Shown here: piece by piece, positions 17,079-20,496 of the stretch | Layout of the letters: every line of letters begins with the position of its first letter | Numbering within the stretch: position 1 is the first letter of the stretch | Source: Paracoccus suum | GTDB taxonomy: Bacteria; Pseudomonadota; Alphaproteobacteria; Rhodobacterales; Rhodobacteraceae | Assembly (NCBI RefSeq): GCF_003324675.1 | Contig: NZ_CP030918.1 | Span: 420,001 to 452,000, forward strand | Direction: 5' to 3' | Length of the DNA stretch: 32,000 bases | Position numbers and translations under genes: made by a program | Notes under the pieces: model-generated | The model's input: only the letters and a program-made list of their open reading frames with translations | Database searches by the model: none | What the model was told of the DNA's origin: nothing

Positions 17079-17876
17079 CTAGCCCAGACGGTGGACGCCC
17101 TCGGGCGCGACGCCGAATGCAGCGAGGGCCATCCACACCGCCATGGCGATCATCATCAGGTTCTCGACCAGCGAGATAAAGCCCAGCGGCACGTTGCTGC
17201 CCCCGCCGACGCAGGCGCATTTCAACTCGCGGTTCTCGACATAGACCGCCTTGAAGACCGACACCGCGCCGACCGTCCCGATGAAAAGTGCGATGGGCAC
17301 CGACAGCCAGGTCAGCGCGCCCGCGATCATCAGAACGCCTGCCAGCCCCTCGGCAAAGGGATAGATATAGCCGTAGGGCACCCAGCGCTCGGCCAGAAGG
17401 TCGTAGTTCAGGAACATCGTGGCGAACGTCTCGACGTTCTGCAGCTTGAGCAGCGCCAGCACGGCCATTGAGAAGCCGATGAACCATTCCGCGGCCATCA
17501 GCGTCAGCGGGTTTCCGGTGACAGCATAGCTTGCCGCCATCGCCATCAACGCCGTCGTCGCGAACAGCGCGATGACCGGGCGATAGCTGGTCGCCTTGGG
17601 ATCCGCGACACTCTTGCCGAGGAAGCGGCGCAGGTCGTCATGCCCGCCGATTCGTTTGCCGTCGATAAAGATCTGGGGCGTGGTCGCAACGCCGTGTTCG
17701 GCCTTGAAGGCCTGGGTCTGCTCGCGTGTCTCGAGGTGATGATCCTCGACCTGGTAGCCGGCGCGCTTGAGCAGATGCATGGATTTCAGCCCATAGGGGC
17801 AGGTGTGCCCGGGCATCACCATGCGGTACAGCGCCGCTTTCGTTCCGGGTGCTGGATGTTTGCTCAGGTCCGACAT
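17079..17876 (-). CDS. Fusion protein: an N-terminal glutaredoxin-like domain (monothiol CPYG) joined to a C-terminal MauE/DoxX-like 4-TM membrane domain.
   Basis: ATG 17876 (MSDLSKH...) is preceded by AAGGAA. The Grx fold reads ALYRMVMPGHTCPYGLKS...TTPQIFIDGKRIGGHDDLRRFL. Four hydrophobic helices follow, with ELKCACVGGGSNVPLG before the last one. Confidence 0.8.
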   Translation of the reverse strand: MSDLSKHPAPGTKAALYRMVMPGHTCPYGLKSMHLLKRAGYQVEDHHLETREQTQAFKAEHGVATTPQIFIDGKRIGGHDDLRRFLGKSVADPKATSYRPVIALFATTALMAMAASYAVTGNPLTLMAAEWFIGFSMAVLALLKLQNVETFATMFLNYDLLAERWVPYGYIYPFAEGLAGVLMIAGALTWLSVPIALFIGTVGAVSVFKAVYVENRELKCACVGGGSNVPLGFISLVENLMMIAMAVWMALAAFGVAPEGVHRLG

Positions 17877-17906
17877 CTCACGTTCCTTGTGGTGGGGCCG
17901 GGGCAG

Positions 17907-17938
17907 ATATAGGGTCTGTACCATGGTACAGAGTCAAG
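17907..17938 (-). promoter_or_regulatory. MerR-type promoter/operator for the Grx-MauE gene: -35, 20-bp spacer carrying an 18-bp perfect palindrome, -10.
   Basis: The minus strand reads CTTGAC (17938-17933), then T-CTGTACCATGGTACAG-ACC, then CTATAT (17912-17907). The palindrome TCTGTACCATGGTACAGA spans 17915-17932. The layout mirrors Tn21/Tn501 merO (TTGACTCCGTAC...GTACGGA) inside an overlong spacer. Confidence 0.65.
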
Positions 17939-18516: not shown

Positions 18517-20031
18517 TCAGATGTCGAAAACGACGCCCTGGGCTAGCGGCAACTGGCGCGAGTAGTTGATCGTGTTGGTCGCCCGGCGCATGTAGGCCTT
18601 CCACGCGTCAGAGCCGCTTTCGCGCCCGCCGCCCGTTTCCTTTTCGCCGCCGAAGGCGCCGCCGATCTCGGCGCCCGAGGTGCCGATGTTGACGTTGGCA
18701 ATGCCGCAGTCCGACCCCGCGGCCGACAGGAACATCTCGCTCTCGCGCAGATCGGTCGTGAAGATCGACGAGGACAGGCCCGCGCCCACCGCGTTGTGCT
18801 GGGCAATCACCTCGTCAAAATCGCCGTAGCGCATGACGTAGAGGATCGGGGCAAAGGTTTCCTCGAGCACCGGACCGGTCTGCTCGGGCATCTCGATCAG
18901 GGCCGGCTTCACATAGAATGCCGCCTCGGGACCGGCTTCGGTGACACGCGTGCCGCCGTGGACCTTGCCGCCCGCAGCAGTCGCCGCCGCGATCGCGTCC
19001 TGCATCGCCTGGAACGCCTGGCCATCGACCAGCGGTCCGACAAGCGCCTGCGTCGTCAGCGGGTTGCCGACCGAGACAGAGCCGTAGGCCTTGATCAGCC
19101 CGGGCACCAACTGGTCATAGACGCTTTCATGGACGAACAGGCGGCGCATCGTGGTGCAGCGCTGTCCGGCCGTGCCCATCGCACCAAAGGCAATGGCGCG
19201 CAGCGCCATATCCAGATCGGCCGAGGGGCAGACGATGCCGGCGTTGTTCCCGCCGAGTTCGAGGATCGCGCGGCCAAAGCGGCCCGCGACCTTGGGTCCG
19301 ACCTGCCGGCCCATGCGGGTCGAACCCGTGGCCGACACCAGCGCGACGCGCGGATCGTCCACCATCGCCTCGCCCGTCTCGCGGCCGCCGATGATGACCT
19401 GGCTCAACCCGTCCGGCACATCGCCAAAGCGGGCCGCGGCCCGCTCGAGGATCGCCTGGCAGGCAAGTGCCGTCAGCGGCGTCTTTTCCGACGGCTTCCA
19501 GACGACCGGGTTGCCGCAGACCAGCGCGAGCGCGGCGTTCCACGACCAGACCGCGACGGGAAAGTTGAAGGCCGAGATTACCCCGACGACCCCCAGCGGA
19601 TGCCAGGTTTCCATCATCCGGTGCCCGGGACGCTCGGTAGCGATGGTCAGGCCGTACAACTGGCGCGACAGGCCGACGGCAAAATCGCAGATATCGATCA
19701 TCTCCTGCACCTCGCCGGCGCCTTCCGAGGGGCTCTTGCCAGCCTCGATCGACACCAGCCGGCCGAGGTCATCCTTGGCTGCGCGCAACTCTTCGCCCAG
19801 CAGGCGGACCAGTTCGCCCCGGCGCGGGGCGGGAACGAGGCGCCATTCACGGAAGGCGGCGGCGGCGCGATCGATCGCCTGGGTCACCTCGGCCGCCTTC
19901 TGCTCCGGCAGCGCGGCGATACGCTCGCCCGTAACGGGGGAAAAGCTCTCCAGAGTACCGTCCGTGTAACGCGCGGGCTGGACGCCAAGGCGGGTCAGGA
20001 TGTCCTGGGCGGTCGTGGCGATTTCGGTCAT
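18517..20031 (-). CDS. Aldehyde dehydrogenase of the ALDH7/antiquitin type (piperideine-6-carboxylate / 2-aminoadipate semialdehyde dehydrogenase-like).
   Basis: ATG 20031 (MTEIATTAQDIL...). ALDH7-like strings are present: EVQEMIDICDFAVGLSRQLYG and ERPGHRMMETWHPLGVVGVISAFNFP. The catalytic ELGGNN and GQRCT motifs are present. Confidence 0.9.
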   Translation of the reverse strand: MTEIATTAQDILTRLGVQPARYTDGTLESFSPVTGERIAALPEQKAAEVTQAIDRAAAAFREWRLVPAPRRGELVRLLGEELRAAKDDLGRLVSIEAGKSPSEGAGEVQEMIDICDFAVGLSRQLYGLTIATERPGHRMMETWHPLGVVGVISAFNFPVAVWSWNAALALVCGNPVVWKPSEKTPLTALACQAILERAAARFGDVPDGLSQVIIGGRETGEAMVDDPRVALVSATGSTRMGRQVGPKVAGRFGRAILELGGNNAGIVCPSADLDMALRAIAFGAMGTAGQRCTTMRRLFVHESVYDQLVPGLIKAYGSVSVGNPLTTQALVGPLVDGQAFQAMQDAIAAATAAGGKVHGGTRVTEAGPEAAFYVKPALIEMPEQTGPVLEETFAPILYVMRYGDFDEVIAQHNAVGAGLSSSIFTTDLRESEMFLSAAGSDCGIANVNIGTSGAEIGGAFGGEKETGGGRESGSDAWKAYMRRATNTINYSRQLPLAQGVVFDI

Positions 20032-20496
20032 GTCTTGGTCCTTGTCAGTCGAAGCGCGCGGCGCCGAGGCCCGGTGCATCTGAGGTTTGATGGTGGCGCC
20101 GGCCCATGCCGTGGTCCGCGCTGAAGCTGGCGCCAAACTCCCCGACCGGGCGTCGGACTACAAGACCGCGCGGCGCGACACCGCATCCGCATCGATGTGA
20201 AAAGGGGCAATTCTACCGTAATTCTCGGGCAACCCACCGCGCGGGTCCCCGGCAGGGTCCACTTCAGCCGGACAAACATCAGCCGGGCGGAACAGCGGCG
20301 GCTTCGAGCAAGTCGTTAAAGCAAGCGCCATCGCGCCAACGTCACCGCGTCGTGCGCTCGGAGCGCGGGAGACGATCTTCGTTTTCCGGTGGAAGTGAGC
20401 GCAGCTAACCTGCTTAGTGTTCAGATATGCCAACCCAGGAGGGTCTCGCGGCACGCCAGTGCTGTCCGCGAGTGCCAGGCGCAGGGACAAGAGACC

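Follow-up and report, generated by a model that had tools for sequence, protein, structure and literature searches.

In a 32,000-nucleotide stretch of the Paracoccus suum chromosome (the window), the 46-bp gap between a MerR-family regulator gene and a divergent gene for a glutaredoxin–MauE fusion (Grx-MauE) contains a merO-type operator centred on the predicted start codon of the regulator. We consider it probable that the two genes form a cassette with two overlapping promoters and one shared operator, in which the Grx-MauE promoter is activated by DNA distortion and the regulator represses its own synthesis. Both encoded proteins match P. suum entries at NCBI with 100% identity.

A merO-type operator fills an over-long promoter spacer

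Read on the minus strand, positions 17938-17907 form the array CTTGAC-T-CTGTACCATGGTACAG-A-CC-CTATAT. The two hexamers agree at 12 of 12 positions with the Sinorhizobium meliloti sigma-70 consensus, CTTGAC-N17-CTATAT (PMC2873474), and the N20 spacer between them is 3 bp longer. Counted as for Tn21, from TTGACT (17932-17937) to CTATAT, the same distance is 19 bp; in the E. coli register the -10 element reads TATATC (17906-17911). Over-long spacers of 19-20 bp define MerR-activated promoters (PMC9909328, PMC11049809). A scan for sigma-70 promoters with 16-18-bp spacers between 17700 and 18100 returned none, which fits this interpretation but is uninformative by itself.

The spacer houses a perfect 18-bp palindrome, TCTGTACCATGGTACAGA (17915-17932), which was recovered by two independent routines; it begins with the final T of TTGACT and stops 2 bp short of the target -10. 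Its length alone is not decisive because 0.56 perfect palindromes of at least 18 bp are expected per dinucleotide-shuffled window and because the window has a second one. The latter, AGCGGGCCGCGGCCCGCT (19428-19445), is GC-rich, within chance expectation, and falls in a minus-strand open reading frame (18517-20136) whose translation resembles an aldehyde dehydrogenase. The merO-type pattern TCYGTAC-N4-GTACRGA, by comparison, was observed once against 0.04 expected, even when two mismatches were allowed, and the match sits in the only MerR-divergent gap of the window. Three sequence features expected of a MerR-type promoter, an over-long spacer, a dyad inside it and a MerR-family regulator gene, are thus present.

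We scanned one genome per species by alignment and found the target gene in at least 593 species. Among the 80 loci kept, 61 have a divergent regulator and a recognizable dyad and four more have the operator with no adjacent regulator; with the window and the pSymA plasmid of S. meliloti, these make up a set of 67 loci. The geometry is fixed in 67/67: [C/G]TTGA[C/T], a 7-4-7 dyad beginning at the last base of TTGACT, two nucleotides and a -10 hexamer. The target -35 is CTTGAC in 49 loci and CTTGAT or GTTGAC in 16, and the -10 is CTATAT in 28, with an ATA core at constant offset in 62. The dyad arms are complementary at 7/7 positions in 41 loci and at 6/7 in 21. TCCGTAC (56 loci) and GTACGGA (46 loci) are the commonest half-sites, and the resulting family consensus, TCCGTAC-N4-GTACGGA, has the half-sites of Tn21 merO.

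A preliminary description of this DNA, made from the letters alone, had proposed a CTTGAC/CTATAT promoter with an over-long 20-bp spacer and a dyad starting, as in merO, at the last base of TTGACT. The sequence and the published S. meliloti consensus bear out the former, and the actual Tn21 record and the family consensus the latter; the palindrome and the 20-bp spacing, on whose conservation that description had staked its case, are upheld in the 67 loci.

The four loci with no adjacent regulator gene (L002, L019, L021 and L052; about 2935-2966) retain a full merO-like promoter and operator before Grx-MauE. Their dyad centres differ (CATG, CGCG, CAAG and CATA), and the exact CACAAG motif, corresponding to the -35 of the regulator promoter, is absent from all four. 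Plasmids carry the target gene too, with 297 records (Pseudosulfitobacter, Sinorhizobium, Phaeobacter, Sphingomonas and others) of which 156 are conjugative, and on chromosomes its neighbourhoods are unrelated. The Grx-MauE/regulator cassette thus appears to be horizontally mobile, so that the locus counts given here lack phylogenetic independence.

The dyad centre is the predicted start codon of the regulator

Regulator codons 1-5 (ATG GTA CAG AGT CAA) coincide with an operator half-site and with the -35 box of the opposite strand. Operator and -35 DNA fix the N-terminus as M-V-(Q/R)-S-Q, with Gln instead of Arg at codon 3 because the window operator carries the C-to-T variant. Nearly all of the 120 listed regulator homologues are 134 residues long. 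Alternatively, the palindromic CATG spacer could have produced the central ATG by chance, with translation beginning downstream, perhaps at a non-canonical codon on a leadered mRNA, as it would in the majority of relatives. The first nine residues of the regulator are in keeping with this, being conserved no further than the operator DNA dictates, as is the ATG of Tn21 merR, which lies 20 nt beyond the dyad centre.

To weigh these possibilities, we measured at each locus how far the dyad centre lies from a robustly aligned codon of the helix-turn-helix and noted all ATG, GTG and TTG codons in that frame. In the window, no such codon occurs between the dyad centre and the helix-turn-helix. Eighteen genome-derived loci (16 from the scan, the window and pSymA) have no canonical start other than the central ATG, all with an in-frame CATG. 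Another 29 have a centre that is out of frame (74, 76, 77 or 79 nt) or is not ATG (TATG, CACA, CGTA and others), and 29/29 of these have an ATG 17-28 nt further in, just beyond the -35; a further 16 offer either start. A metagenome scan that left the dyad centre unconstrained added 93 loci with a regulator: eight have the central start only (all in-frame CATG), 24 have both and 61 the alternative only, the last group with 12 different centres and spacings of 71-92 nt, and none is startless.

Across the combined 156 loci, 26 depend on the central ATG, 90 start clearly outside the -35 and none is without a start. The 90 loci and their 12 central tetranucleotides count in favour of a downstream start. 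However, the window and 25 other loci offer no ATG, GTG or TTG between centre and helix-turn-helix, and every one of them has the in-frame central ATG. Lack of an alternative start and possession of an intact central ATG go together (Fisher p = 5.8e-12, a value overstated by the phylogenetic non-independence of the loci). N-terminal insertions in central-only loci also preserve the frame, by +33 nt (78 to 111 nt) in L010, L015, L016 and L134; an insertion of +30 nt (108 nt) in L006, a locus that has in-frame GTGs as well, does likewise.

On this comparative sequence evidence, a definable part of the family is predicted to start at the central ATG, with a freely varying spacer elsewhere. The start codon could probably relocate to the dyad centre because a palindromic CATG provides an ATG for free. 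The identification of the central ATG as start codon in the preliminary description therefore holds for the window and 25 other loci, and its view of the region as textbook MerR architecture is accurate for the promoter type, but the central-ATG layout is exclusive in a minority only (26/156 loci).

We also considered an upstream in-frame TTG (17887; 146-residue open reading frame) and rejected it, as this TTG belongs to the CTTGTG -35 motif of the regulator promoter and lies upstream of the transcription start site (TSS) mapped in S. meliloti. Moreover, 11 of the 17 central-ATG-only loci examined have a stop codon in frame 6-11 codons before the central ATG and no start between the two (for example TGA in L001 and L068). 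In loci that, like Tn21, start beyond the -35, the regulator strand of the half-site (GTACGGAG) places GGAG 7-9 nt before the ATG, so that an operator half-site may double as a Shine-Dalgarno sequence; the window variant, GTACAGAG, destroys this GGAG.

The orthologous regulator transcript starts on the central ATG

The cassette on pSymA of S. meliloti 1021 reads CTTGAC-TCTGTAC-CATG-CTACGGA-AC-TTATAG, and its regulator SMa0281 has 134 residues, the N-terminus MVQSQDLQELTIG and no alternative start. We calculated the position expected of a leaderless TSS, pSymA 158400 (+), before inspecting any TSS data. The genome-wide S. meliloti map of Schlueter et al. 2013, built from terminator-exonuclease-enriched primary 5' ends of 16 pooled conditions, lists SMa_TSS0430 at 158400 (class lmTSS, untranslated region 0, first bases ATG), which is the first base of the SMa0281 start codon at the dyad centre. 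SmelAR015, an earlier independent transcript, begins at the same base. This leaderless TSS was already public in a supplementary table; in the literature we found no paper connecting it with the operator and none on SMa0281.

The map assigns to this TSS the RpoD promoter CTTGTG-N17-ATAAGT. The window has a counterpart with the same geometry, CTTGTG (17886-91)-N17-ATAGGG (17909-14)-N8-ATG (17923), whose predicted -10 has a TATA core in common with the divergent target -10. CTTGnn is found at this fixed offset in 17/18 central-ATG-only loci versus 5/16, 2/29 and 1/4 in the other groups. Because of the S. meliloti TSS and the shared CTTGTG-N17 geometry, we predict that +1 is 17923 in P. suum and, by analogy, that the regulator mRNA is leaderless. 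Leaderless mRNAs are especially frequent for transcription regulators (PMC7563307); a C. metallidurans TSS paper lists leaderless regulators, merR not among them.

These data return to two earlier suggestions. The expectation of a leaderless mRNA was realized in the S. meliloti orthologue. An AGGG 8 nt upstream of the ATG had been pointed out as well; lying upstream of the orthologue's mapped TSS, it would be outside the mRNA if transcription starts as in S. meliloti, and we rejected it as the Shine-Dalgarno sequence of the regulator. The primary transcript of SMa0281 also bears on a downstream start: a transcript that begins at the central ATG and contains no other start codon offers nothing else for initiation, and we regard translation from further downstream as highly improbable.

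The right operator half-site has an additional use in S. meliloti. Together with the next two bases it forms GGAAC, the -35 of a general-stress RpoE2 promoter to which the target-gene TSS is assigned (GTACGGAAC; L091 2414-2449, pSymA 158361-158396), and GGAAC-N15-CG(A/G)TT is common to Rhizobiaceae loci. Judging from these sequences, one dyad would serve three promoters in S. meliloti. The GGAAC/RpoE2 motif is absent from the P. suum window (GTACAGACC; compare 17913-17921).

The regulator combines a MerR-like DNA-reading head with a CueR-like loop

The regulator comprises the Pfam domains MerR_1, MerR-DNA-bind and MerR. Its best profile match is MerR TIGR02051 at 105.9 bits, under the equivalog cut-off of 150.85 (SMa0281 scores 122.3 bits); it reaches 80.2 bits against CueR TIGR02044 (cut-off 147.4) and is also under the cut-off of every other metal-sensor equivalog. 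The closest structural relative is Tn501 MerR (5crl, E 2e-25), and 5crl, 4ua1 and 1q05 align over the full length. The recognition helix, VETVRFYQRKGLL, shows one conservative difference from that of Tn501 MerR, VETIRFYQRKGLL.

The sensor region is different. Equivalents of Cys117 and Cys126 are kept in 63/63 regulators and form a C-x7-C metal loop in 61/63, whereas the position of MerR Cys82 (CueR Ser77) is Arg in 55, His in eight and Cys in none. The window loop, C-EHGVKGP-C, aligns without gaps to CueR C112-x7-C120. In CueR a 7-residue loop holds a bithiolate centre, and tri-thiolate Hg(II) coordination by MerR needs an 8-residue loop and a third Cys (PMC4551924). The two-Cys, CueR-length loop with no third Cys therefore does not correspond to the tri-thiolate Hg(II) site of true MerR. 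By sequence, the regulator classifies as MerR-like in DNA recognition and as neither a mercury MerR equivalog nor a CueR member; its earlier designation as MerR-like is apt for DNA recognition and fails for mercury sensing.

At four loci (L004, L018, L075 and L079), merO is replaced by a CueR-type box, TTGACCTTCC-N7-GGAAGG, about 60-120 bp before Grx-MauE. We verified the same arrangement as the box upstream of E. coli copA, and the adjacent regulators in L075 and L079 exceed the CueR equivalog cut-off. These loci indicate, at the sequence level, that regulator and operator have been swapped with retention of the Grx-MauE target. The effector is most likely a thiophilic ion held by two thiolates, judging from loop and regulon: Cu(I)/Ag(I)/Au(I), or Hg(II) as a bis-thiolate.

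A genuine mercury-responsive MerR, with Grx-MauE as a new mercury transporter or handler in a minimal mer operon, would be in line with the best family and structure matches and with the merO identity of the operator. JGI labels many homologues 'mercuric resistance operon regulatory protein', linear binding of Hg(II) by two thiolates is possible (PMC4551924), and the target has invariant cysteines in its CPYG and membrane CAC motifs. Yet the profile score falls well short of the MerR equivalog cut-off, 63/63 regulators have Arg or His in place of Cys82, and the loop is one residue shorter than that of MerR. No merT, merP or merC was found within 3 kb in the 80 loci (merA itself was not searched), and the Pfam-annotated neighbourhoods hold unrelated housekeeping or signalling genes, none mercury-related. 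Elsewhere the same target seems to be under CueR control, and a mutant of the S. meliloti orthologue SmGrx3 (SMa0280) has no reported phenotype, its function being still to be elucidated (PMC6315971). We judge a mercury-dedicated system unlikely.

Proposed mechanism

The sequence, its conservation, the start-codon logic and the orthologue TSS are observed; regulator binding, activation by distortion, autorepression and the effector we infer, following the Tn21/Tn501 model and published reviews. The CTTGAC-N20-CTATAT spacer would be 3 bp too long for sigma-70 RNA polymerase, and a regulator dimer would sit on the merO-type dyad within it, by analogy with Tn21/Tn501 MerR. On the same analogy, the regulator would hold the Grx-MauE promoter off when the effector is absent; with effector bound, it would kink and under-wind the spacer, realign the -35 and -10 elements and activate the target. 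The regulator promoter, CTTGTG-N17-ATAGGG, would fire the opposite way, starting on the A of the dyad-central ATG and yielding a leaderless mRNA translated without a Shine-Dalgarno sequence. The operator would cover roughly -9 to +9 of the regulator TSS. Because it spans this +1 and because the two -10 elements share TATA base pairs, the bound regulator, or polymerase at the target promoter, would occlude the regulator promoter, resulting in negative autoregulation. The preliminary description had the regulator covering its own initiation codon; we retain this idea as promoter occlusion at the DNA level, over -9 to +9, and not as translational control.

The regulator could instead act purely as a repressor or roadblock, with the target using other promoters and the long spacer having nothing to do with distortion. 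Such a role has a precedent in CvkR, a MerR-family pure repressor with a leaderless mRNA, and it would account for the S. meliloti map, in which the abundant SMa0280 TSS (5300 reads) comes from the RpoE2 promoter whose GGAAC overlaps the right half-site and none comes from CTTGAC-N20-TTATAG. That RNA pool, however, included no metal condition, and the window has neither the GGAAC/RpoE2 motif nor a normally spaced sigma-70 promoter. In the 67 loci, among them the four with no adjacent regulator, the near-consensus hexamers always stand at the same over-long distance, and this conservation is hard to explain unless the promoter works by realignment. Operator position and recognition helix are also those of the activator MerR. 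We think it quite unlikely that the regulator only represses.

Several points weigh against the distortion-activated, autorepressed cassette that we favour. The sole mapped SMa0280 TSS (158361) derives from the RpoE2 promoter and not from the MerR-type one, and the register of the target -10 is ambiguous, giving a spacer of 19 or 20 bp. The CATG centre is palindromic, so that an ATG there comes at no cost, and the loci with only the central start share a related 5' region on a plasmid-borne cassette, which makes their counts phylogenetically dependent. The P. suum regulator TSS is predicted from the orthologue and operator binding from sequence, and the effector assignment draws solely on the length of the loop and on the exchanged regulons of other species.

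The glutaredoxin–MauE target gene and coordinates of the features

The features of the cassette are listed in Table 1. Grx-MauE has three invariant cysteines, C26, C220 and C222, in the CPYG and membrane CAC motifs. Literature searches on MauE with MerR, glutaredoxin or CueR and on SMa0281/SMa0280 returned the SmGrx3 review as the sole relevant source. A minus-strand ATG at 17924-17922, supplied by the palindromic CATG and in frame, would extend the protein (281-residue open reading frame); we rejected it since it lies between the -35 and -10 of the gene's own promoter and since an AAGGA(G/A) Shine-Dalgarno sequence accompanies the conserved MSD start. Some database homologues of Grx-MauE are annotated with this extension (279-281 residues).

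Table 1. Positions of the cassette features in the window
Feature	Position	Strand	Remarks
Glutaredoxin (CPYG) + MauE membrane-domain fusion gene, 265 aa	17079..17876	-	Orthologue of S. meliloti SmGrx3 (SMa0280)
Grx-MauE Shine-Dalgarno AAGGAA	17883-17888	-	Precedes start at 17876
Predicted -35 CTTGTG of regulator promoter	17886..17891	+	Overlaps Grx Shine-Dalgarno of opposite strand
-10 hexamer CTATAT of Grx-MauE promoter	17907..17912	-	20 bp from CTTGAC
Predicted -10 of regulator promoter, ATAGGG (17909-14) or TAGGGT (17910-15)	17909..17915	+	S. meliloti ATAAGT at equal offset
Operator TCTGTAC-CATG-GTACAGA (7-4-7)	17915..17932	.	Symmetric C-to-T / G-to-A variant of merO TCCGTAC-N4-GTACGGA
Predicted regulator TSS, leaderless, +1 = A of ATG	17923..17923	+	Homology with SMa_TSS0430
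MerR-family regulator gene, 134 aa	17923..18327	+	ATG 17923-17925 = dyad centre; NCBI annotates same protein
-35 hexamer CTTGAC of Grx-MauE promoter	17933..17938	-	Matches S. meliloti sigma-70 consensus and Tn21 merT -35

Several homologues (P0007, P0051, P0063, P0092, others, and L088 6001-7062) carry a C-terminal DUF305 (PF03713) on Grx-MauE, and the same 134-residue regulator lies 47 bp upstream of them. In the predicted Grx-MauE mRNA, the 5' end CGAC can pair with GTCG just past the start codon (17874-17901, minus strand); both sides change together in Rhizobiaceae (CAAC/GTTG; five sequences, probably one event). A hairpin, TTCAC...GTGAA, at the Grx Shine-Dalgarno sequence was rejected, as RNAalifold gave no such consensus structure (-0.47 kcal/mol).

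Implications

MerR-type promoters are the textbook example of activation via DNA distortion. The promoter type described here belongs to this MerR/merO architecture and is, mechanistically, an extension of known principles. Three aspects appear to be undescribed: a dyad centre that is both +1 and ATG of the regulator, the evolutionary mobility of a start codon around a fixed operator, and a hybrid of a merO-reading head and a CueR-like loop that controls Grx-MauE. One 18-bp dyad is proposed to have four roles, as activator site for the target, as repressor site on the regulator's own +1, as template of a leaderless start and as coding sequence of an N-terminus.

More tentatively, the family may represent an uncharacterized, widespread and plasmid-mobile branch of metal/thiol-stress sensing, in which the same 23 bp would act as operator, -35, TSS and first five codons, and in which the start codon would have moved repeatedly between the dyad centre (leaderless) and a position outside the -35 (leadered, with the half-site GGAG as Shine-Dalgarno sequence). 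If so, start-codon relocation would tune both autoregulation and translation mode. The cassette allows the interconversion of leaderless and leadered forms of one regulator to be studied in evolution and, with a TSS mapped in S. meliloti, is a compact system in which to examine the sharing of one regulator between overlapping divergent promoters. The routine annotation as 'mercuric resistance operon regulatory protein' is not supported by the sensor residues or the gene context; the promoter logic and the CueR control in other species suggest inducers for the widespread Grx-MauE proteins of the SmGrx3 type.

Comparison with known systems

The Tn21 record reads CAT-ATCG-CTTGAC-TCCGTAC-ATGA-GTACGGA-AG-TAAGGT. 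Like the mer loci of Tn21 and Tn501, the cassette has a regulator divergent from its target, partially overlapping divergent promoters and an identical -35, CTTGAC. The 7-4-7 half-sites of the family consensus are identical to those of Tn21 and the dyad begins at the same base of TTGACT; the -10 is at equal distance from the dyad, 19 bp from TTGACT, and the recognition helix is near-identical (Tn501). In Tn21, however, the merR ATG lies 20 nt past the dyad centre, beyond the -35, and is preceded by the half-site GGAG, whereas in the window the ATG itself forms the dyad centre and a leaderless mRNA is predicted, a comparison made by the position of the merR ATG and not by the merR TSS. The window further differs in its -10 (CTATAT, not TAAGGT), in the symmetric C-to-T change of its half-sites, in lacking Cys82, in having a 7- rather than an 8-residue loop, and in controlling Grx-MauE instead of merTPA.

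E. coli CueR at PcopA resembles the regulator in its two-Cys C-x7-C loop, which aligns without gaps (LAN-C...CPI), and in a dyad placed within an over-long spacer; for L075 and L079, sequence predicts that a true CueR controls the same Grx-MauE target. The CueR operator is CCTTCC-N7-GGAAGG and not merO, Ser77 stands where the regulator family has Arg or His, and in the record examined cueR is not divergent from copA, the upstream neighbour of which is glsA.

CvkR (Alr3614), the repressor of a type V-K CRISPR-associated transposon (CAST) in Anabaena, is likewise a MerR-family protein with a proven leaderless mRNA, a divergent target across a short gap and an autoregulatory promoter overlap. Its inverted repeats, in contrast, flank the Pcas12k -35 and overlap the PcvkR -35, not a TSS or ATG. 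CvkR only represses and lacks a metal loop, and its target is also leaderless.

SMa0281/SMa0280 of S. meliloti is an orthologous cassette, with MVQSQ read from a dyad-central ATG and a CTTGTG-N17 regulator promoter. It differs from the window, which has no RpoE2 promoter, by an additional RpoE2 promoter whose -35 is taken from the right half-site.

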